A stretch of 54,355 nucleotides of DNA, taken from assembly GCA_016183435.1 (NCBI GenBank), contig JACPEQ010000011.1:1-54355 (forward strand), in the 5' to 3' direction. Each line of letters starts with the position of its first letter. Within the stretch, counting starts at the first letter, position 1. The notes beneath the pieces were generated by a model that did no database searches, had not been told where the DNA came from, and saw only the letters and a program-made list of their open reading frames with translations. Positions 12,994-52,822 of this stretch are shown here, piece after piece. Position numbers and translations under genes: made by a program. This DNA is from Chloroflexota bacterium. Lineage in GTDB: Bacteria; Chloroflexota; Limnocylindria; P2-11E.

Positions 12994-13302
12994 GTGCTGA
13001 TCGTCCTCACGCAGGAGCCAGTGGGACCGGTCGTGATAGCGGCCATCGTCGCGATCGCGGTGGCCGTCGCGTCGGCGGCGAGCCTCCTGATGCTCCGCTT
13101 CGCCACCGCCGGCCGGAGCACGCGGGCGCGCTCGTCGCGGGCGCGGGCCCTGCGCCGCGGCGGCGAGCTCGGCGCGATCGTCGGCTTGATCGCAGCGCTC
13201 CAGGTCGTCGGCGGGCTCACGCCGCTCACGGTCCTCTTCATCGTCCTCTCCTTCGCGATCGCCGAGTACGTGCTCTCGGCGGGCGCCACTCCCTCGCGCT
13301 AG
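12994..13302 (+). CDS. Small hypothetical membrane protein
   Basis: 102 aa with two or three hydrophobic helices. The frame is open back to the rmuC stop and encodes another hydrophobic stretch (VLARLLVVALVLALATL) with no canonical start. Confidence 0.45.
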   Translation: MLIVLTQEPVGPVVIAAIVAIAVAVASAASLLMLRFATAGRSTRARSSRARALRRGGELGAIVGLIAALQVVGGLTPLTVLFIVLSFAIAEYVLSAGATPSR

Positions 13303-18783: not shown

Positions 18784-19601
18784 GCGGGCCCGACCGACCC
18801 ATCGGGGTCTTCGACTCCGGTGTCGGCGGCCTCACGGTCCTCAAGGAGCTTCGCCGCCAGCTGCCGAACGAGTCGACGGTCTACCTCGGGGACGAGGCGC
18901 GCATGCCCTACGGCGAGCGCGAGGCCGCGGAGGTCGTGGAATTCACACGCAAAGCCGTGCAATGGTTCGAGCGCGAAGCACAGCCAAAGTTGATCCTCAT
19001 CGCGTGTAACACGGCGACGGCCGTCGCGCTCGAGATAGTGCGTGAGGAGTCATCCGTGCCGGTGATCGGCGTGATCCGTCCAGGTGCTTCGGCGGCGCTG
19101 ACCGCCACCTCCAGGCGAGCAGTTGGCGTCTTGGCCACGCGATTGACCGTGCGATCGGGCGCCTATTTCCGGGCACTGCGGGATCTCGACCCTCTGATCG
19201 ACGTCATCCAGCAGCCGGCGCCGAAGCTCGTGCCGCTGATCGAGGCCGGCGGCGCGCGGTCGGACGAGGCGCGCGCCGCGGTCCGTGAATACATCGCGCC
19301 GATGCTGAGCGAAGGCGCAGTAGTGGCGCCAGGTGTCGACACGATCCTTCTCGGCTGCACGCACTATCCGTTGGTAAGGTGGGCCATCGAGCAGATCACG
19401 GGCCCGGTCGTGCGCGTCGTCGACTCCGCGACCACGACAGCGCTTGCGGTGCGAGAGGTCCTGGACTCGCATCGTCTGCGTGCGACGGGAGACACGCCGA
19501 CCCAACGCGTTCACGCGACCGGCTCCTTGGACACGTTCGTGCAAGTCGCGCGCGCAATGTTCGGTCAGGCGACTGAGGTACATCCTGCGACTTTGTCCTA
19601 A
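18780..19601 (+). CDS. murI: Glutamate racemase (compositionally mosaic)
   Basis: IGVFDSGVGGLTVLKEL, ACNTA and GCTHYP catalytic blocks with a GTGA overlap. By hand count, GC drops from about 71% (18781-18880) to about 58% (18941-19040). Confidence 0.9.
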   Translation: MSGPDRPIGVFDSGVGGLTVLKELRRQLPNESTVYLGDEARMPYGEREAAEVVEFTRKAVQWFEREAQPKLILIACNTATAVALEIVREESSVPVIGVIRPGASAALTATSRRAVGVLATRLTVRSGAYFRALRDLDPLIDVIQQPAPKLVPLIEAGGARSDEARAAVREYIAPMLSEGAVVAPGVDTILLGCTHYPLVRWAIEQITGPVVRVVDSATTTALAVREVLDSHRLRATGDTPTQRVHATGSLDTFVQVARAMFGQATEVHPATLS

Positions 19602-20087: not shown

Positions 20088-20306
20088 GTGAAGCCGCCAG
20101 GTGCGCCGAAGCTCGTCCCGCTCATCGAGGCCGTCGGTGCGAGGTCGGAAGAGGCTCGCGAGGTGCTGGACTCGCACGGCCTGCGCGCGCTCGGCGGCAT
20201 GGCGACACATGAGGTGTTCGCCACGGGGGAAGGCCGCCGCTTCCGGGAGATCGCGAAGACGATGTTCCGCGAGGACGTGATCGTGAACGAGGCGGTCCTC
20301 GCGTGA
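20088..20306 (+). pseudogene. Displaced native 3' fragment of murI with an internal deletion
   Basis: APKLVPLIEAVGARSEEAR joined directly to EVLDSHGLRA..ATG....F..IAKTMF parallels murI residues APKLVPLIEAGGARSDEAR ... EVLDSHRLRA..ATG. It has host-like high GC, and its TGA overlaps the ychF GTG (GTGA). Confidence 0.75.
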
Positions 20307-22097: not shown

Positions 22098-22169
22098 TGC
22101 GTCCCAGTATGTCCGCCTGCGAGACTGAGCGTCGTGGTGCCGGACTGAGCGAGCGCGCCCGATCCCTCT

Positions 22170-22332
22170 CGATCGGCCACGTCGCACGGGACGAGTTCCC
22201 CGACGGGGCCCACCGGCTCGGCGGCACGGCGCTCTACGCGGCGGCGACCGCCGCTCATCTGGGCGTCCCGAGCGCTCTCGTGACGCGCGTCGGCCCGAAC
22301 GAGAGGGCCGAGCTGACGCGCACGTGTGCCGA
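22170..22332 (+). repeat. Direct repeat copy 1 (start-less pfkB 5' fragment)
   Basis: 163 nt matching 24864-25026 with one mismatch by my alignment. It encodes IGHVARDEFPDGAHRLGGTALYAAATAAHLGVPSALVTRVGPNERAELTRTCAE but lacks the start region. Confidence 0.95.
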
Positions 22333-24717: not shown

Positions 24718-24850
24718 GCTGCCCCCTTGGGCCCCCTTCACTTCGGCGCGGAGCCTAGCGGCCCTCCGTACGCTCGGGATACGGGCGAACGGTCGTTCGA
24801 GCGAGCGCGCCGACCGCGCGGGCCTGATGCTTCGCCTCGTGCGGGACCGG

Positions 24851-25687
24851 GTGCGCTTCCTCGCGATCGGCCACGTCGCACGGGACGAGTTCCCCGACGG
24901 GGCACACCGGCTCGGCGGCACGGCGCTCTACGCGGCGGCGACCGCCGCTCATCTGGGCGTCCCGAGCGCTCTCGTGACGCGCGTCGGCCCGAACGAGAGG
25001 GCCGAGCTGACGCGCACGTGTGCCGAGCTTGGCATCGACCTCCGCGCGCTCGACGCGCTCGTCACGACGACGTTCGCCTTCCGCTGGGACGGGACCGGCA
25101 AGCGGATCCTGCGCCTGAAGGCGCGCGCGAAGGCGATCGCGCTCGCCGACGTCCCCGATGACCTGCGCGCGGCCGATGCGCTCGTCCTCGGATCGATCGC
25201 GCGCGAGCTGTCGGAGGACCTGCTGCTCGGCGAGACCGCACGGATCTCGGTGCTCGCCGCGCAGGGTCTCTTGCGGACATGGGACGCGGACGGCACGGTC
25301 CGGCCGGCGACCTGGGACCGCGCCGAGCAGGACATCCGCGCCCTGTCCGCGGTCGTGCTCAGCGACGAGGACGTCGCGGGCGATGCGGGCGCGGTGGCGC
25401 GCTGGTCGGCGGTCGTGCCCGTGGTGCTGACCCTCGCCGATCGGGGCTGCCGCATCTACGAGCGCGGGCATCCGACCGTCGAGCTCCGTGCGTATCCGCC
25501 GGCGCGCATGGTGGACACGACCGGGGCGGGCGACACGTTCGCGGCGGGCCTGGCCGTCGCGCTCGGTGAGGGCCGCGCTCTCGCCGATGCATGCCGGTTC
25601 GCCAATGCCGTCGCGTCCTTCGGGCTCGAAGGGCCCGGCATCGCGGGCCTGGCGACGCGTGAGGCCGTGGAGCGGCGGCTAGGCTAG
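24851..25687 (+). CDS. PfkB-family carbohydrate kinase
   Basis: N-terminal VRFLAIGHVARD and the C-terminal anion-hole motif DTTGAGDTFAAG. The start is GTG 24851, in frame with the track ORF. Confidence 0.85.
   Translation: MRFLAIGHVARDEFPDGAHRLGGTALYAAATAAHLGVPSALVTRVGPNERAELTRTCAELGIDLRALDALVTTTFAFRWDGTGKRILRLKARAKAIALADVPDDLRAADALVLGSIARELSEDLLLGETARISVLAAQGLLRTWDADGTVRPATWDRAEQDIRALSAVVLSDEDVAGDAGAVARWSAVVPVVLTLADRGCRIYERGHPTVELRAYPPARMVDTTGAGDTFAAGLAVALGEGRALADACRFANAVASFGLEGPGIAGLATREAVERRLG
24864..25026 (+). repeat. Direct repeat copy 2 (5' end of the intact pfkB-family gene)
   Basis: See copy 1. A further 13-nt match, gagcgagcgcgcc, lies upstream of both copies (22147 and 24799). Confidence 0.95.
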
Positions 25688-30818: not shown

Positions 30819-31486
30819 CGGGCGACCAGCAGCCTTCGCTCGAGCCAGTTCACTCCGAGGCTCGCCGGGATCGTGAGGACGAGGTAGAGGAGGACGACGG
30901 CGCCGAACGCCTCCTCGGTGCGGAACGTCCGTGACTCCACGATCTCGGCGGCCTGCAGCAACTCCGCGACGCCGATCGTGGAGGCGAGCGACGTGTTCTT
31001 GATGAGGGCGATCCCGATGTTCCCGAGCGGCGGGATCGTCGCGCGGAAGGTCTGCGGCAGCTGCACGTAGCGGAGGGTCTGCACGTACGACAGGCCGAGC
31101 GATCGGGCCGCCTCGATCTGACCCTTGTCGACGCCGAGGAGGCCGCCGCGGATGACCTCCGCCACGTACGCGCCGTGGTACAGCGCCATCCCCGCCGCCC
31201 CCGCGCGGAAGATCGACTCGAACGTGTCCGTCGTCCAGAACCGGAAGCCGAGGGCGCCGAGGCCGAGGAACAGGAAGAAGAGCTGCACCAGGAGCGGCGT
31301 GTTCCGGAAGAACTCGACGTAGGCGACCCCGACCCAGCGCAGCGGAGGGATGGGGGAGATGCGGAACAGCGCGATGAGAGTACCGGCGGCGAGCGCGCCG
31401 ATCGACCCGAGGACCGACAGCTGGACCGTGAGGAACAGGCCGGTGAAGAAGAGGTCGGGGAACTCGAACATGATCGCGCCAGGCAT
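30815..31486 (-). CDS. Amino-acid ABC transporter permease
   Basis: EVIRGGLLGVDKGQIEAARSLGLS block. ATG 31486 is preceded by ggaagga; the track ORF starts 60 nt further upstream. Confidence 0.85.
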   Translation of the reverse strand: MPGAIMFEFPDLFFTGLFLTVQLSVLGSIGALAAGTLIALFRISPIPPLRWVGVAYVEFFRNTPLLVQLFFLFLGLGALGFRFWTTDTFESIFRAGAAGMALYHGAYVAEVIRGGLLGVDKGQIEAARSLGLSYVQTLRYVQLPQTFRATIPPLGNIGIALIKNTSLASTIGVAELLQAAEIVESRTFRTEEAFGAVVLLYLVLTIPASLGVNWLERRLLVAR

Positions 31487-31502
31487 CGTCAGGTCCTTCC
31501 GT

Positions 31503-31590
31503 CCCCCACGCGCGCAGACCGAGGCGCGCACGCCGAGGTCGGGCACGTGGGCCTGAGGGAGGGCTTTGCCCGACCGAGGGTCGGAACAGG
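31503..31590 (+). repeat. Dispersed repeat family, copy E1
   Basis: cgcgcgcagaccgaggcgcgc ... cccgaccgagggtcggaacagg shares its 5' and 3' ends with the copies at 36742, 43466 and 47750. Confidence 0.75.
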
Positions 31591-31593
31591 AAC

Positions 31594-31618
31594 GGGGGCC
31601 GGCATCACGCCGGCCCCC
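31594..31618 (-). promoter_or_regulatory. Intercistronic 10-bp GC hairpin between the binding-protein and permease genes
   Basis: Perfect stem gggggccggc/gccggccccc with a 5-nt loop, 24 nt downstream of the binding-protein stop codon. No U tract, so more likely an mRNA stabiliser or attenuator than a full terminator. Confidence 0.5.
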
Positions 31619-31642
31619 GCCTCTGGAACTTCGCTCTCAGCG

Positions 31643-32566
31643 CTAGCCGCCCGGACGGCCCTTGTCGTGGGGTCCGTCCTTGACGTCGCCGGACACCGGG
31701 GTGATGTGCTTCTTGTAGAGCGCGGCCCAGCGGCCGTCGGCGATCATGTCGGCGATCACCTTGTTGAGGAACGGGGCGAACCCGGTCCGGCCCTTGGCGA
31801 TGCCGATGCCGTACGGCTCGTCGGAGAAGTAGCCGCCCACGATCTTCGTGTTCGGGTCCTGCTTCACGAGGCCGAAGAGGATCGTCTCGTCGGTCGAGAC
31901 GGCGTCGGCCTGGCCCTGCTGGAGCGCGATGAGGCACGGCGGGTAGCTGTCGAGCAGCAGGAGCTTGGCGTCCTTGTTCTTGGCCGCGATGTTCTTCTCG
32001 CTCGTCGAGCCCTTGGCCGTGCAGACCGTCTTGCCCTTGAGGTCCGCGACCTCCTTGATCGTCGTGTCCGACTTCTTCACGAGGATCTTCTGGCCCGTGC
32101 GGAAGTACACGGTGCTGAAGTCGATCTCCTTGAGGCGCTCCTCGTTGACGGTGAACGTGGCAGCGACGATGTCGGCCTTGTTGTCCTTCAGCGTCGGGAT
32201 GCGGGTCGCGGAGACGACCGGCACGTACTCGATGAACTTGTCCGGGTCGGCCTTCCCCTCGGCCCCGAAGATGGCGATGGCGAACTCGCGCACGACGTCG
32301 ACGTCGAAGCCTTCGAACTTGCAGGTGGCGGGGTTCTTCAGCCCGAACGGCACGTTGTCCTCGCGCGTGCCGACCTTGAGCTTGCCCTTGGTCTGGATGG
32401 CGTACTGGTACGACGCGAGCTCGAACTTGGGCTTGGCGGCCGCCGTCGCGGCCGGGGCCGCGGTCGGCGACGGCTGTGTGGGAGCACCACCTCCGCCGCC
32501 GCACGCCGCCGCGAGGACGGCGACGGCCGCGCCGAGGGCGGTGATGCGTACGAGGATGCTGCGCAT
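31643..32566 (-). CDS. Amino-acid ABC transporter substrate-binding lipoprotein
   Basis: Signal peptide with lipobox LAAACGG and a family-3 solute-binding fold (DVDVVREFA, STDETILFG). Confidence 0.85.
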   Translation of the reverse strand: MRSILVRITALGAAVAVLAAACGGGGGAPTQPSPTAAPAATAAAKPKFELASYQYAIQTKGKLKVGTREDNVPFGLKNPATCKFEGFDVDVVREFAIAIFGAEGKADPDKFIEYVPVVSATRIPTLKDNKADIVAATFTVNEERLKEIDFSTVYFRTGQKILVKKSDTTIKEVADLKGKTVCTAKGSTSEKNIAAKNKDAKLLLLDSYPPCLIALQQGQADAVSTDETILFGLVKQDPNTKIVGGYFSDEPYGIGIAKGRTGFAPFLNKVIADMIADGRWAALYKKHITPVSGDVKDGPHDKGRPGG

Positions 32567-34667: not shown

Positions 34668-34739
34668 AGCGGGGTAGTGGAGTGGCACCACGGAGGGCTC
34701 ATAACCCTCAGACCGGGCGTTCGAATCGCCCCCCCGCAA
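34668..34739 (+). tRNA. Initiator tRNA-fMet (anticodon CAT), CCA not encoded
   Basis: Manual cloverleaf: AGCGGGG TA GTGG AGTGGCA CCAC G GAGGG CTCATAA CCCTC AGACC GGGCG TTCGAAT CGCCC CCCCGCA A. It has a 1:72 mismatch and three G:C pairs closing the anticodon stem, and the 3' half resembles E. coli tRNA-fMet (..CCCCCGCAA). Confidence 0.88.
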
Positions 34740-34751
34740 CAGCGAGACGAA

Positions 34752-35699: not shown

Positions 35700-35771
35700 G
35701 GCTGGGTAGCTCAGTGGCAGAGCAGCGGCGTCATAATCCGCTGGCCGTGGGTTCGAATCCCACCCCAGCCA
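35700..35771 (+). tRNA. tRNA with anticodon CAT (elongator Met or Ile2/lysidine type), atypical anticodon arm
   Basis: GGCTGGG TA GCTC AGTGGCA GAGC A GCGGC GTCATAA TCCGC TGGCC GTGGG TTCGAAT CCCAC CCCAGCC A. It has a C31:U39 mismatch and G32, and ends 4 nt before the tilS ATG. Confidence 0.8.
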
Positions 35772-35775
35772 CTCG

Positions 35776-36732
35776 ATGACCTCCTCGACGACCTCCCAGC
35801 AGATCCGCGACACCGTGCGCCGCTTCGCCCTGGAGCACGACCTCTTCAAGCCGGGCGGGCTCGTCGTCGCCGTCTCCGGCGGCGTCGACTCGACCGCGCT
35901 TCTCCTCCTGCTGGCCGACCTCGCGCCCGGCATCGGGCTCGTCCTGCACGTCGCCCACTTCGATCACCGCCTGCGCCGCACCGGTGCGGCCGACGCGCAG
36001 TTCGTCTCCGGCCTCGCCGCGAGGGTCGGCGCCACGATCCGCGCCGGGCGCGCCGAGCGCGCGCCCAAGAGCGAGGACGACGCGCGCCGGGCGCGCTACG
36101 CCTTCCTCGAGCGGGTGGCCGCCGAGCGGCGGGCGACCGCGATCGCGACGGGCCATACGCGGGACGACCAGGCCGAGACCGTGCTCCTCCACTTGACGCG
36201 GGGGAGCGGCATCGGCGGCCTCGCCGGCATGCGGCCGTCGCGGGAGGGCATCGTGCGTCCGCTGCTGTGCATCGGCCGCGCGGAGACGGCCGCGGTGTGC
36301 GCCGCGGCGGGCATCGCCCCGCGAGAGGACCCGACGAACCGCTCGCTGCGATACGCGCGCAACCGCATCCGCAGACGCGTCCTTCCGGAGCTCGCCGCGA
36401 TCAACCCGCAGGTGAGCAGCGCGCTCGCGCGCGTCGCGGACGCCGCGGCGGACATCGCCGCATCGCACCGCGAGCGCGCGGTCGCACTGCTCGACGCCGC
36501 CACGCGTGACGGCGCGATCGACCTCGACGCGCTCGGCGCCGATCCGGCGGTGCGCGAGGAGGCCCTCGCGGTGGCCTGGGAGCGAGCGACCGGGCGCGTG
36601 CTCAGCGCGCGCCATCGCGAGGCCGTGGGGGCACAGGGAGCGCGCGGCGACGGGCACGCGGCGCTGGACCTACCGGGCGGACGCCTTACTCGTGAGCACC
36701 GCGAAGTGCGCATCCAGGTACACACGGAATGA
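35776..36732 (+). CDS. tilS: tRNA(Ile)-lysidine synthetase
   Basis: PP-loop VAVSGGVDSTALL and the blocks HFDHRLR, ATGHTRDDQAETVLL and RPLL. Confidence 0.88.
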   Translation: MTSSTTSQQIRDTVRRFALEHDLFKPGGLVVAVSGGVDSTALLLLLADLAPGIGLVLHVAHFDHRLRRTGAADAQFVSGLAARVGATIRAGRAERAPKSEDDARRARYAFLERVAAERRATAIATGHTRDDQAETVLLHLTRGSGIGGLAGMRPSREGIVRPLLCIGRAETAAVCAAAGIAPREDPTNRSLRYARNRIRRRVLPELAAINPQVSSALARVADAAADIAASHRERAVALLDAATRDGAIDLDALGADPAVREEALAVAWERATGRVLSARHREAVGAQGARGDGHAALDLPGGRLTREHREVRIQVHTE

Positions 36733-36741
36733 GACTGCGTA

Positions 36742-36840
36742 CCCGGGCGCGCAGACCGAGGCGCCGCAGCGCGCTACGCGCACAGGGCTCCTACCCCTGG
36801 GCACTCGCGAGGGGTTCCCCCGAGCGACGGTCGGAATAGG
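36742..36840 (+). repeat. Dispersed repeat family, copy E2
   Basis: cccgggcgcgcagaccgaggcgccgcagcg ... ggttcccccgagcgacggtcggaatagg. The interior differs from E3/E4. Confidence 0.75.
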
Positions 36841-43292: not shown

Positions 43293-43465
43293 CGCCACCA
43301 GCGTCGCTCGAGCGGGAGCGAGTAGCCCGGCGGAGGCCGTTCAGAGAACCCCGGCTGGTGCGAAGGGGGACGGCGGAGCCAGGCGAATGGGTCCCGCGAG
43401 ACGCCGCCTCGAACGCGCAAGCCAGTAGAGGCGGCCGGAAGCCCTCCGTTACCTGGGCATCCGTA

Positions 43466-43556
43466 CCCCCCGGGCGCGCGGACCGAGGCGCGAAGCGACG
43501 AGGTCGAGCACCCGGGCCAAGCGAGCGGGTCTCCCGCGAGCGAGGTCGGAACAAGG
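43466..43556 (+). repeat. Dispersed repeat family, copy E3 (inside the T-box leader)
   Basis: ccccccgggcgcgcggaccgaggcgcgaagcgacgaggtcgagcacccggg ... gcgagcgaggtcggaacaagg. It is about 80% identical to E4 by eye. Confidence 0.75.
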
Positions 43557-43598
43557 TCCTCGGCGCGAGCCGTGGACGAGTTCGGGTGGCACCACGAG

Positions 43599-43634
43599 CC
43601 CTCGTCCCGAAGGTGGGGCGAGGGTCTTTGTTTT
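43599..43634 (+). terminator. T-box attenuator (intrinsic terminator) upstream of trpE(G)
   Basis: 10-bp stem ccctcgtccc/ggggcgaggg (one G:U) with loop gaaggt, followed by tctttgtttt. It lies 19 nt before the trpE(G) ATG. Confidence 0.8.
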
Positions 43635-45880: not shown

Positions 45881-46915
45881 ATGGACGCGATCGCGGCGCT
45901 CGGAGCGATCATCGGTGGGCGGACGCTCACGCGCGAGGAAGCGCGGGCGACGATGGCGTCCGTGATGGCCGGTGAGGCCACGGCGGCGCAGCTCGGCGCG
46001 CTCCTCGCGACGCTGCACCTGCGCGGCGAGACGGTCGACGAGATCGTCGGGTTCGCGGAAGCGATGCGGTCCGCCGCCGTCCCGGTGCGCCTCGCGGGTG
46101 AGGCGGTCGACATCGTGGGCACGGGCGGATCGCGGATCGACCCGTTCAACATCTCGACCGTCTCGAGCATCGTCACGGCCGCCGCGGGCGGGAAGGTCGC
46201 GAAGCACGGGAACCGCGCGGCCACGGGCAAGTGCGGGAGCGCGGACGTGCTCGAGGCCCTCGGCGTGAAGATCGACCTTGGCCCGGAGGAGGCCGCCCGG
46301 TGCGTCGACGAGGTCGGCGTCGCCTTCCTGTTCGCGCCGCGGTATCACCCCGCCATGCGCCACGCGAGCCCCGTCCGGCGCGAGATCCGCATCCGCACGG
46401 TCTTCAACATCCTGGGGCCGATCTCGAATCCCGCAGGCGTGCGCCGCATGGTCCTCGGCGTCGCCACGCCACAGGTGGGCGAGAGCATCGCTCGCGCTCT
46501 CGGGGAGCTCGGCGCGGACCACGTCATCGTCGTCCACGGCGAGGACGGCCTCGACGACATCAGCCCGACGGGACCGACCCGGACGTGGGAGCTGCGCGAC
46601 GGATCGCTGACGATCGGGACGATCGAGCCCGCGGCGCTCGGCCTGCCCGTGGGCACGGTCCTCGACATCCAGAGCGGCGACGCGGCGGCGAACGCCGCGA
46701 CGGCGCGTTCGGTGCTCGGCGGAGAGACCGGAGCGCGGCGCACGGCGGTGCTGCTGAACGCCGGCGCCGGCCTCTTCATCGGTGGCATCGCGGAGAGCCT
46801 GCGCGAAGGCGTGCTGCTCGCGGCCGCCGCGATCGACAGCGGCGCGGCGACGGCGACCCTCGACCGCTTCGTCGAGACCAGCCAGCGGCTCGGGTCAGCG
46901 GCGGCGACCGCATGA
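45881..46915 (+). CDS. trpD: Anthranilate phosphoribosyltransferase
   Basis: [29 protein letters not shown] and LGPISNPAG blocks. Confidence 0.9.
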
Positions 46916-47838
46916 CCGACTTCCTCGACCAGGTCGTCGCGGAACGGCGAGCGGACGCCGCGCGCGCCAGGCGCGACCGGACGGAGGCCGCGGTGTACGA
47001 AGAGGCGCTGCTGCGCGGCTGCACGGCGATCGCGCGGCACGGCAGCGGCGGCGACGCGTTCACGCAGGCGTTCCGGCGGCGGCGCGACCGCGAACAGCTC
47101 GCGGTCATCGCCGAGGTGAAGCGCGTCTCTCCCGCGCTCGGAACGCTCCGCGCGGACGCCGACGTCCGCGCGATCGCACGGCGCTACGAACGCGCCGGCG
47201 CGACGGCGATCTCCGTCCTGTGCGAGCCTCGCCACTGGGGCGGATCGCTGAAGGACCTCGCGACCGTCCGGGAAGTCGTGGGGATCCCGGTGTTGTGCAA
47301 GGACGTGATCGTCGACGAACGGCAGATCGTCGAGGCCTGGGCCTCAGGCGCGCACGCCGTCCTCCTGATCGCGGAGGCGCTGGAGGACGCCGAGCTGCGG
47401 CGTCTGATGGAGCGCGCCCGGGAGCTCGGCATGGGCGTGCTGGTCGAGGCGCACGAGACGCGGGCCTTCGAGCGTGCGGCCGCGAGCGGCGCGAGCGTCC
47501 TCGGCGTGAACGCTCGCGACCTGCGCTCGCCGAAGGAGATCCATCCGGAGCGCATCGGGCTGCTGCACGACATCGCGAAGCCGTCGCAGATCCTCGTCGC
47601 GGAGTCGGGCATCGGCAGTGTCGACGACGCGCTCGCGCTGCCCGCGCGCGTCGATGCCGTCCTCGTGGGCACGGCGCTCATGCGCGCGGACGATCCCACG
47701 GCGCTCATCCGCCATCTCGCGGCGCTGCCGCGGGAGAGTCGAGCGGTACCCGCGGGCGCGCAGACCGAGGCGCCGCAGCGACGAGGTCGAGCACCCGTGC
47801 CCGAGGGAGGGGTCCCCCCGAGCGAGGGTGGAAATTGA
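46912..47838 (+). CDS. trpC: Indole-3-glycerol-phosphate synthase with a repeat-derived C-terminal extension
   Basis: ATGA overlap. Blocks [36 protein letters not shown] and AESGI. The last roughly 35 codons (..[30 protein letters not shown]) are read through repeat copy E4. Confidence 0.88.
47750..47834 (+). repeat. Dispersed repeat family, copy E4 (inside the trpC 3' end, abutting the trpB start)
   Basis: cccgcgggcgcgcagaccgaggcgccgcagcgacgaggtcgagcacccgtgcccgagggaggggtccccccgagcgagggtggaa. Confidence 0.8.
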
Positions 47839-51269: not shown

Positions 51270-52067
51270 TTGCGCATCGCGGTCGTCGGCCTCGGCCTGA
51301 TCGGCGGCTCGATCGCCCTCGCGCTCCGCGACGGCCACGATGCGCGCGGCTTCGATACGGATGCGCGCACGCGGGAGGCCGCGCGCACCCGCGGGCTGGC
51401 CGTGGTCGATCGGCTCGACGACGTGCTGCCGGCGGACGCGGTCGTGGTCGCGACGCCGCTGGCGAGCGTCGTGCCGACGCTCGAGGCCATCGTCGCGCGC
51501 GCCGGCCGCGCGGTCCTGATCGAGGTCGGCTCCCTGAAGGGACCCGTCGGCGCGTTCGCGGAGCGCGCGCGAGAGGACGCGCGCATCGTCGGCCTGCATC
51601 CGATGGCGGGCAGCACCGCATCCGGCTTCGCGGCGGCCGATCCGGGGATCTTCCGCGGCCGTCCGTTCCTCGTGGTCCCGACGGCGCGGACCGACGCGGC
51701 CGCGATGGCGATGACGGGCGACCTCGCGCGGGAGCTCGGCGGCACGGTCACCGTGTGCTCGGTGCAGATCCACGACCGCGTGATCGCCGCCGTGTCCGCC
51801 CTGCCGCTGGCGACCGCGGTCGCGCTCGCGCGTGTCGCGGGCGCCGGGGTGCCGATGCCGCTGGAGGACGTCGCGGGTCCGGGGCTGCGTGATGCCACGC
51901 GCCTGGCGTCGACACCTCTCGAGCTCGCGCTGCCGCTCCTCGCCGCGCCCGGCGTGGCGGAGCGCATCGCCTCGCTCCGGGCGGCGCTCGGCGACATCGA
52001 GCGCGCCATCGGCGACGAGGCGGCGCTGCGCGCGCTCCTCGACCGCGCAGGGAGCCCGCGGACGTGA
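51270..52067 (+). CDS. tyrA: Prephenate dehydrogenase
   Basis: The TTG start abuts the upstream stop. Rossmann motif IAVVGLGLIGGS and the HPMAG block. Confidence 0.85.
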   Translation: MRIAVVGLGLIGGSIALALRDGHDARGFDTDARTREAARTRGLAVVDRLDDVLPADAVVVATPLASVVPTLEAIVARAGRAVLIEVGSLKGPVGAFAERAREDARIVGLHPMAGSTASGFAAADPGIFRGRPFLVVPTARTDAAAMAMTGDLARELGGTVTVCSVQIHDRVIAAVSALPLATAVALARVAGAGVPMPLEDVAGPGLRDATRLASTPLELALPLLAAPGVAERIASLRAALGDIERAIGDEAALRALLDRAGSPRT

Positions 52068-52822
52068 CCGTCCCCCCGAGCGACGGTCGGACAGGCCGGC
52101 TCGGATTCGGCATCGCGGCCGCGCTCGGACCGGGCGTCGCCGGCGACGTCGCGGGAGAGGTCGAACGTCTCGGCTACGAGACGATCTGGACGACCGACGG
52201 CACAGCGGGAACGGGTCTGCCGCTCCTGGCCGCCGCCCAACGCTCGTCGCACGCCATGCTGTTGGGCGTCGGCGTCATCCCGTGCGATCTGCGAGGAGCG
52301 CGCGAGATCGCGGAGACGATCACGAACCTCGGGATCGACACCTCGCGCGCGATCGTCGGCATCGGATCCGGGCGCGCCGAGCATCCCGCCGAGGCCGTGC
52401 GCGCTGCCGTGACGGACCTTCGGGCTCTCCTGCCGCCCGGGTCGGCGATCGGCATCGCGGCGCTCGGTCCGCGGATGTGCCGCCTCGCCGGCGAGATCGC
52501 CGACGTGGTGCTGCTCAACTGGATGACGCCGCAGAGGATCCGCTGGGCGCGCGAGCGCATCGCGGAGGGCGCGCGGCGTGGTGGTCGGAAGGGCGGCCCC
52601 GTGATCGCGTCGTACGTCCGCGTCGCGATCGGAGCCGATGCGTCCGATCGCCTTGCGGCGGAAGCGGACCGCTACGCGCGGGTCCCCGCGTACGGGCGCA
52701 GCTTCGCCGGGATGGCGGTCGAGCCGGAGTGGTGCGGCGGGCCGCACCTTCAGCCGATGAAGTTGCCGATCACGAACTCGTTCGCGAGCGCCCCGAGCAG
52801 GAGCAGCGACAGGATCACGTAG
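52064..52822 (+). CDS. LLM-class (luciferase-like) flavin/F420-dependent oxidoreductase
   Basis: GTGA overlap. It has LGFGI...VERLGYETIWTTD and LNWMTPQR. The first roughly 10 codons come from a half copy of the repeat family (52070-52095). The 3' end overlaps the convergent gene by 73 nt, so the C-terminus is uncertain. Confidence 0.7.
   Translation: MTVPPSDGRTGRLGFGIAAALGPGVAGDVAGEVERLGYETIWTTDGTAGTGLPLLAAAQRSSHAMLLGVGVIPCDLRGAREIAETITNLGIDTSRAIVGIGSGRAEHPAEAVRAAVTDLRALLPPGSAIGIAALGPRMCRLAGEIADVVLLNWMTPQRIRWARERIAEGARRGGRKGGPVIASYVRVAIGADASDRLAAEADRYARVPAYGRSFAGMAVEPEWCGGPHLQPMKLPITNSFASAPSRSSDRIT

Follow-up and report, generated by a model that had tools for sequence, protein, structure and literature searches.

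The window, by which we mean the whole 54,355-nucleotide stretch of Chloroflexota DNA analyzed here (72% GC), carries an amino-acid ABC operon, tilS followed by the leader of ftsH, a Trp-type T-box leader in front of a fused trpE(G), trpC and trpB, and tyrA followed by an LLM-oxidoreductase gene. Each of these places also holds a copy, or the remains of a copy, of one short repeat. We searched the entire window, with filters off, using a covariance model (A3/R1) built from 17 copies that lie outside it, and found four full copies, all on the plus strand: E1 at 31498-31589 (93.4 bits with R1), E2 at 36736-36839 (42.0 bits, a degenerate variant), E3 at 43462-43554 (69.6 bits, with a type B hairpin 2), and E4 at 47744-47837 (92.8 bits, gapless against the model). 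A fifth site on the same strand, E5 at 52067-52092, is a 26-nt, internally deleted remnant that scores 8.2 bits and retains the 3' motif with one mismatch; the best match in the window that is not a copy reaches 18.7 bits. The 18-mer GCGCGCRGACCGAGGCGC occurs exactly four times, always on the plus strand, against 0.00 expected from 100 shuffles, and the 3' motif has four matches against 0.27 expected. The repeat in the window is real. The first-pass annotation had reported at least four full copies on the plus strand, in settings as different as the antisense strand of an ABC operon, the downstream side of tilS, a T-box leader, trpC, and an oxidoreductase gene; the covariance model recovered all four, with boundaries ~5 nt further 5', and every one of these settings is correct.

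E1 lies antisense to the ABC operon, whose genes were named by NCBIfam, between the gene for the substrate-binding protein (31643-32566, minus strand) and the permease gene (minus strand, ATG at 31486). Directly after E1, at 31594-31619, is a GC-rich hairpin that resembles a terminator for the minus-strand binding-protein gene. E2 starts 4 nt past the tilS stop codon (TGA, 36730-36732) and upstream of the ftsH leader; alignment of the variant reveals that the 3' strand of hairpin 1 is gone and that extra small hairpins are present instead, a variant type common to two further loci (L138 and L174) and a degenerate state that the first-pass annotation did not register. Just upstream of tilS are two tRNA-Met (CAU) genes, 34668-34740 and 35700-35772, 1 kb apart; TilS modifies the CAU-anticodon tRNA-Ile2, and one of the two genes may encode this tRNA. 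The window also contains other repeated sequences: a 187-nt direct repeat, 95% identical, whose copies (22146-22332 and 24840-25026) are 2.7 kb apart and overlap the ends of minus-strand ORFs; a 65-nt unit in three tandem copies that are 82-94% identical (1642-1819), probably a coding repeat; and a 58-nt repeat, 88% identical, at 19218-19275 and 20103-20160, 885 nt apart, which suggests adjacent paralogous genes.

E3 splits the T-box leader of trpE(G) into a part with stems I-III and a part with the T-box and terminator. The 5' part, from stem I to CCGUUA (43298-43466, plus strand), is kept in relatives and matches RF00230 with 38.9 bits; the split caused by the repeat leaves it under the gathering score of 93. 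The T-box sequence GGGUGGCACCACG, the terminator hairpin, and the U-run together occupy 43581-43634 (plus strand), as judged from the alignment of relatives, with the second T-box fragment at 43581-43609 and the terminator at 43598-43634. The fused trpE(G) truly starts at the conserved ATG 43653; the ORF start at 43572 is spurious. The repeat is not an integral helix of the leader, as the orthologous trpE leaders of three relatives (L238, L239, and L241) are without it.

E4 divides into a 5' tag (47746-47749), hairpin 1 (47751-47799), hairpin 2 (47800-47828), and a tail (47829-47837), and sits at the trpC/trpB junction. There, a TTGA overlap (47835-47838, plus strand) combines the TTG start of trpB (47835-47837), which lies inside the E4 tail, with the stop codon TGA of the trpC frame (47836-47838). 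The trpC ORF (46231-47838) has no earlier stop and runs through all of E4, so that its frame gains ~35 repeat-encoded codons; homology to TrpC extends only to residue ~500 of 535, and the TrpB model matches from residue 2-3. Automatic TrpB calls in relatives vary accordingly, from 387 to 435 aa. E5 is found at the tyrA/LLM-oxidoreductase junction, on the first codons of the oxidoreductase, and the stretch is absent from the relative L238. It had been taken for a 3' half copy at 52070-52095; its sequence, ACCGTCCCCCC|GAGCGACGGTCGGAC, instead joins the 5' end of the repeat to its 3' end and, judging from this join, is an internal deletion between the repeat's two C-runs.

To characterize the spread of the repeat beyond the window, we combined pattern scans with the covariance model. 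Scanning genome contigs with the 18-mer alone proved unspecific, since 114 of 117 loci were chance matches inside genes of unrelated high-GC bacteria; these chance loci were reused as a negative control, and the covariance model gave 0 matches in the 749 kb of unrelated high-GC loci, each of which contains the 18-mer by chance. The whole repeat is present in three loci of the genome scan, all of them Chloroflexota MAGs (L040, from Candidatus Limnocylindria, L078, and L092). A pattern scan of metagenomes yielded at least 120 loci with ~100 distinct copies, on contigs of median 71% GC, while viral contigs gave no matches to the more specific pattern. The model aligned 103 copies, 101 of them distinct, most of which had been gathered with an exact pattern for the hairpin 1 core, so that conservation there partly reflects ascertainment. 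The copies score 42-116 bits and the background at most 19 bits. In the window, TrpB shares 87-93% identity with proteins that bear the label Candidatus Limnocylindria or Chloroflexi bacterium RIFCSPLOWO2_..._71, which places the source of the window in this class and not among the actinobacteria. The Limnocylindria are abundant in soil and freshwater and known almost only from metagenomes, and literature searches returned no description of repeat content in this group. A search of Rfam release 15 (all 4227 families) found no match overlapping any copy, either at the gathering score or at E<=5, in line with the earlier remark that no described family could be recognized. Two of the checks proposed in the first-pass annotation, a search for further copies and a covariance model, gave ~100 additional distinct copies in metagenomes and Chloroflexota MAGs and a clear separation from background. 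The repeat is common in Limnocylindria-type Chloroflexota and is not specific to the source genome.

The repeat is ~94 nt long and forms two adjacent imperfect hairpins, with an unpaired 5' tag, YCGUC(C), and a 3' tail, GGUCGGAAU. The consensus of the 5' part is YCGUCC-CCCGGG-C-GC-GCA-GACC-GA-G-G-CGC-(loop)-GCG-A-C-GA-GGUC-GA-GC-A-CCCGGG, and that of the 3' part CC(C)-GA-SS-GA-GGGS-(UYY)-SCCC-GA-SS-GA-(G)GG, followed by UCGGAAU-RGG. The outer half of hairpin 1 comprises a variable 6-bp outer stem, GC:GC, a GCA/GA loop, and GACC:GGUC; further in are a tandem G.A, an inner stem of 4-5 bp, and a loop of 3-4 nt that varies and tolerates extra helices, as found in the long variants L132, L193, L206, and L239. 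Hairpin 2 consists of CC(C):(G)GG, a tandem G.A, 2 bp, another tandem G.A, 4-5 bp, and a triloop, with two pairing alternatives, GAGGGA with GACCGA or GAGCGA with GAGCGA. Variation is found in the 6-bp outer stem of hairpin 1, in both apical loops, and in the two central pairs of hairpin 2. The 5' tag stands directly 5' of the outer stem, and its positions are unpaired in the covariation-supported fold; among 86 copies, C occurs 73 times, G and T 86 times each, and the final C 67 times (A in 15). The recurrence of CGAGG within copies, reported earlier, is accounted for by the repeated C-GA-GG tandem G.A internal loops.

Covariation strongly supports this fold. In the 103-copy alignment, 98.0% of the stem cells hold standard pairs, compared with 89% in shuffles; compensatory change on both sides is seen in 18 of the 25 pairs, and compensated cells number 155, compared with 32 in shuffles and at most 22 in controls with slid partners. 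Covariation supports long-range pairing of GACC with GGUC, of GC with GC, and within the variable 6-bp outer stem, and it does so in place of the local hairpin proposed in the first-pass annotation, with a cgcgc/ggcgc stem around the loop agaccgag; neither the long-range fold nor the unpaired CGTC-type 5' tag figured in that account. Stem cells contain 34 G.U or U.G and 11 A.C or C.A combinations, and the G.A tandems would be C.U on the other strand; therefore, the plus strand is the folded strand, as RNA or as single-stranded DNA. Three further readings were tried and rejected. Pairing of the 5' tag region with the 3' tail as a closing stem (CCG:CGG) was dropped, as no covariation is seen in the variants GGUCC and UCAGA; a K-turn at the GCA/GA loop was rejected, as Watson-Crick pairing of GACC:GGUC explains the data; and loop-length indels break every frame between copies, which disposes of coding potential and agrees with the earlier statement that the element has no coding capacity.

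All 107 distinct copies with assessable flanks lie between coding stretches called on either side. Co-directional gene pairs hold the repeat in sense in 32 copies and antisense in 13 (71% and ~29%; binomial p=0.0066), a sense bias that the first-pass annotation had not noted; 13 copies lie between divergent and 4 between convergent genes. The neighbors are diverse: 150 flanking ORFs matched 155 Pfam families, including ABC permeases and ATPases, ThyA, GyrB, ETF, GrpE, and methylmalonyl-CoA mutase, and no transposase is among the 25 flanking-gene families listed, each matched by at least two ORFs. Antisense and sense copies have mean covariance-model scores of 68.7 and 65.5, respectively (Mann-Whitney p=0.67), and from this equality it follows that the constraint is intrinsic to the strand of the repeat and not to the flanking mRNA. 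GC skew on the repeat strand, positive for 44 of the 81 copies assessed, follows the strand of the genes and not replication, and so carries no information on a replication-strand bias.

The repeat often fills the entire gap from a stop codon to the next start region. For sense copies, the first candidate starts of the downstream gene are concentrated between -5 and +30 relative to the tail, and at several sense loci the GAGG(G) of the hairpin 2 3' strand and an AUG or UUG of the tail are the Shine-Dalgarno sequence and the start of the downstream gene. Thus, the AUG of GGAAUGAGG is the start of thyA (L166), of a response regulator (L205), and of another gene (L222), and the UUG of GGAAUUGA is the start of etfB (L213) and of trpB in the window. 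The repeat contains no stop codon in any frame before its tail; consequently, an upstream gene without a stop of its own reads through to a UGA or UAG that overlaps the next start. Among 35 upstream genes with a callable frame, 16 have their stop at most 22 nt before the repeat or extend into its 5' end. Another 6 are read through the entire repeat to a tail stop overlapping the start that follows (AUGA or UUGA), and 4 stop 5-16 nt past that tail window, so that roughly a quarter to a third of these ORFs end in the tail or shortly beyond it. The remaining genes comprise 3 that stop inside the repeat and 6 whose frames run far past it, which is probably frame ambiguity. This tight fit of the upstream stop with the downstream Shine-Dalgarno sequence and start was likewise absent from the earlier account.

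To compare orthologous sites, we collected seven syntenic relatives (L238-L244) via their TrpB homologues. At the trpC/trpB junction, the site is filled in the window and in L239 (with an enlarged hairpin 1, 45 bits), reduced to a tail in L243, and empty in L238, L240, L241, L242, and L244. The reading frames overlap at this empty site in L238, L240, L241, and L244, by ATGA in the first three, and in L242 the genes abut. L243, the closest relative (93% TrpB identity), retains only the tail GAGGGTCGGAGTTGA, and its trpB is shortened in the same way and starts at TTG. In the T-box leader of trpE, the repeat is present in the window and in L244 (90.9 bits), a remnant with an internal deletion in L243, and absent from the three leaders mentioned above, which have a ~20-nt GC hairpin in its position, e.g., GCGCCCCG-UAGAU-GCGGGGGC; judging from these sequences, the repeat seems to substitute for the small hairpin rather than to be a clean addition. 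The tilS/ftsH site is filled in the window and empty in L244 and L241, with no remnant. A further antisense copy, which the window does not have, lies between DAHP synthase and tyrA in L239. These filled, empty, and remnant orthologous sites show that the repeat is gained and lost, on the time scale of genomes with ~90% identical TrpB. The evidence for mobility consists of these presence/absence patterns.

Decay proceeds by deletion between the repeat's own short direct repeats (GACCGAGG, GAGGTCG, and the C-runs). Six metagenome loci contain nested or partial arrays (L189, at ~13085-13290, L216, L218, L139, L186, and L135), in which a 5' fragment ending at the apex of hairpin 1 is followed by a full copy and then by repeated 3' tails, the 11-nt tail unit occurring up to three times in L186; from the order of their parts, these arrays look like nesting into the hairpin 1 loop followed by deletion. 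At the orthologous oppC/oppD, thyA, and etfB junctions, the repeat is retained with compensatory changes, and copies at orthologous sites differ by 43 compensatory and 14 disruptive stem changes, some of the pairs being doubtful. Selection in place might account for the compensatory excess, as might replacement through gene conversion.

We also examined the ends of the repeat and searched for an enzyme that might move it. Beyond YCGTCC on the 5' side (86 copies) and GGTCGGAA on the 3' side (75 copies), the flanks contain no conserved or duplicated bases, and the flank logos bear out the earlier statement that there is no target duplication. The absence of terminal inverted repeats likewise holds at the level tested; by eye, the 5' end CCGTCCCCCGG and the reverse complement of the 3' end, CCGACCCTCGG, match weakly, at ~9 of 12 positions. 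A TA or CTAG target of the IS630-like type, prompted by CTA or TAG near some ends, receives no support from the logos. No insertion-site rule emerged, and the empty sites at trpC/trpB and in the T-box leader did not reveal a target tetranucleotide. A check for a RAYT gene had been suggested. Comparison of E. coli RayT with six-frame ORFs from 1.0 Mb of repeat-bearing DNA gave a single Y1_Tnp ORF (40.5 bits) on contig L140, and no partner was identified within these contigs. Within positions 1-1202 of this contig, which contain the IS200-like Y1_Tnp gene, a truncated hydrolase, and a repeat copy, GC shifts from ~57% to ~72% near 1020; L140 is probably a chimeric assembly, with its 57% GC part foreign to the 72% GC part that bears the repeat, and a RAYT association via this ORF was set aside. 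The gene between two head-to-head copies in L206 was also discarded; it looks like one for a multi-pass membrane protein (AI-2E/PerM-like by eye) and has no transposase features.

Among described elements, the CGTC-tagged palindromic repeats come closest to the Limnocylindria repeat. This CGTC REP superfamily includes the Neisseria dRS3 and Rickettsia RPE-4/6 elements; each member has one stem of 8-9 bp with A/T pairs at its foot, a loop of 4-5 nt, and a CCA tail. The members are mostly head-to-head dimers and come from Proteobacteria, Chlorobi, Bacteroidetes, Spirochaetes, and Thermotogae, with none reported from Chloroflexi (Di Nocera et al. 2013, PMC3733652). Like these repeats, ours is dispersed and intergenic, carries an unpaired CGTC (TGTC or CCTC in variants of the superfamily) before a stem-loop, has no dedicated transposase that could be found, and is sometimes translated within an ORF; in our repeat the tag takes the form YCGTC, and its G and T do not vary among the 86 copies. 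In contrast to them, it is ~94 nt long and has two composite GC-rich hairpins with tandem G.A loops and its own characteristic tail; it has 25 Watson-Crick pairs and GC-only stems where the superfamily has single stems and dimers, and its copies are mostly solitary, an adjacent inverted fragment being found at one locus only (L136).

Other known systems resemble the repeat in part. REP/BIME (REPIN) sequences are likewise short, structured, extragenic, multicopy repeats with a strand-specific imperfect hairpin, an unpaired 5' tetranucleotide, neither terminal inverted repeats nor target-site duplication, and lineage-variable abundance, and they can affect the expression of neighboring cistrons; however, they have a GTAG tag, a length of 20-40 nt, typically inverted doublets, and a RAYT gene flanked by REPs, none of which is seen here. 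The tag is CGTC and not GTAG, and the 1.0 Mb examined contains no repeat-flanked RAYT as in a REPtron. Mycobacterial interspersed repetitive units (MIRUs) are reportedly 40-100 nt long, intercistronic in operons, and mostly in gene orientation, with an open reading frame through the unit whose stop and next start overlap the neighbors; they are also said to form tandem arrays (VNTR) and not to be defined by a covarying two-hairpin fold. E4 (UUGA) and the copies in L166, L205, L213, L127, and L178 resemble them in having an ORF through the repeat that overlaps the neighboring stop or start, whereas the Limnocylindria repeat is single-copy per site, is antisense in 13 of the 45 copies between co-directional genes, and in 16 of 35 cases follows an upstream gene that ends before it or at its 5' end. 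Tandem arrays of variable copy number were not seen; partial 5' fragments and repeated tails occur in the six loci described above. Elements of the IS200/IS605 type transpose as single strands through a Y1 HUH enzyme and insert 3' of a fixed tetra- or pentanucleotide, in an orientation tied to the lagging-strand template. With palindrome-associated elements derived from them, the repeat shares the lack of terminal inverted repeats and target-site duplication, same-strand hairpins just inside both ends, a short left-boundary sequence that is conserved, and similar tetranucleotides at the two ends (CGTC and GGTC), but no TnpA or TnpB partner is seen with it. The left-boundary CGTC could be an insertion-type site as in IS200/IS605, although empty sites do not show it. 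REP/RAYT, MITE, and MIRU each differ from the repeat in at least one tested defining feature.

Based on these data, we consider it likely that the repeat represents an undescribed, ~94-nt, non-coding, non-autonomous, dispersed family of Limnocylindria-type Chloroflexota that is broadly REP-like. The first-pass annotation had argued for a REP/MITE-like dispersed, mobile or recombinogenic element rather than a single cis-regulator, and this view is supported by the diverse neighbors and by the filled, empty, and remnant sites. Such a family would spread as DNA by means of a strand-specific, structure-recognizing enzyme supplied in trans; we found no such enzyme. Our leading guess, a tentative one, is a Y1/HUH (RAYT-like) single-strand mechanism, because of the unpaired 5' CGTC, the similar 3' GGTC, the hairpins near both ends, and the lack of terminal inverted repeats and target-site duplication. 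Once in place at a junction, the repeat might influence translation in one of two ways. Where the upstream ORF reads through the repeat, as at trpC-E4-trpB, the Shine-Dalgarno sequence GAGGG is paired at the base of hairpin 2, and the terminating ribosome would open it and so enforce translational coupling; where the upstream gene stops before the repeat, the folded rod may instead damp or insulate downstream initiation. More speculatively, and with small probability, the repeat may be a mobile "junction cassette" put to use as RNA by its host, bringing its own stop, masked Shine-Dalgarno sequence, and start. Inserted between two cistrons, this tandem G.A-rich rod would then take the place of their native overlap and make their coupling depend on ribosomes and on the fold; a dedicated RNA-binding protein might read it, and it would be moved by an enzyme of the kind likewise missing for the orphan CGTC repeats.

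Several observations can also be read as those of a host cis-acting RNA module that lies between cistrons or in a 5' UTR and either is a binding site for a global factor or acts as mRNA stabilizer or translational gate; such a module would be selected at each locus and spread only incidentally. Its fold is strand-specific and strongly covarying, with G.U in excess of A.C; co-directional copies are mostly in sense, with the 3' tail coinciding with the next gene's Shine-Dalgarno sequence and start; and the repeat is kept at orthologous junctions with an excess of compensatory changes. We nevertheless judge this explanation unlikely. The 13 antisense copies, and E1 in addition, are conserved as well as the sense copies, the neighboring genes are functionally unrelated, the closest relatives are without the repeat at the same junctions, several having a plain ATGA overlap there, and many copies are truncated, nested, or internally deleted. 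Much less probable is a MITE that descends from a DDE-type insertion sequence and moves via terminal inverted repeats with target-site duplication: the size fits, and the weak inverted match of the ends and the CTA or TAG near some of them are as one might expect, but the flanks of the 86 and 75 copies lack conserved or duplicated bases, the fold is two same-strand hairpins and not one long palindrome, and the listed flanking families include no transposase. That the repeat is a catalogued RNA family, belongs to the T-box leader itself, or is a similarity that arose by chance, as the location of E3 and the GC-rich DNA could suggest, is scarcely credible given the absence of Rfam matches even at E<=5, the orthologous T-box leaders that lack it, the shuffles without exact matches, and the silence of the covariance model on 749 kb of other high-GC DNA.

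The family matters for annotation as well as for biology. The repeat distorts gene calls, as illustrated by the 35-codon tail of trpC, the moved start of trpB, and the T-box leader that falls under its Rfam threshold, and a covariance model for it would improve the annotation of Limnocylindria genomes; its presence or absence among close relatives is a potential strain marker. It is also a large, strongly covarying addition to the CGTC-tagged repeats, for which no dedicated transposase is known. As a clear instance of a dispersed element that settles where two cistrons meet and appropriates the stop, the Shine-Dalgarno sequence, and the start, it makes the interplay between mobile DNA and translational coupling testable.
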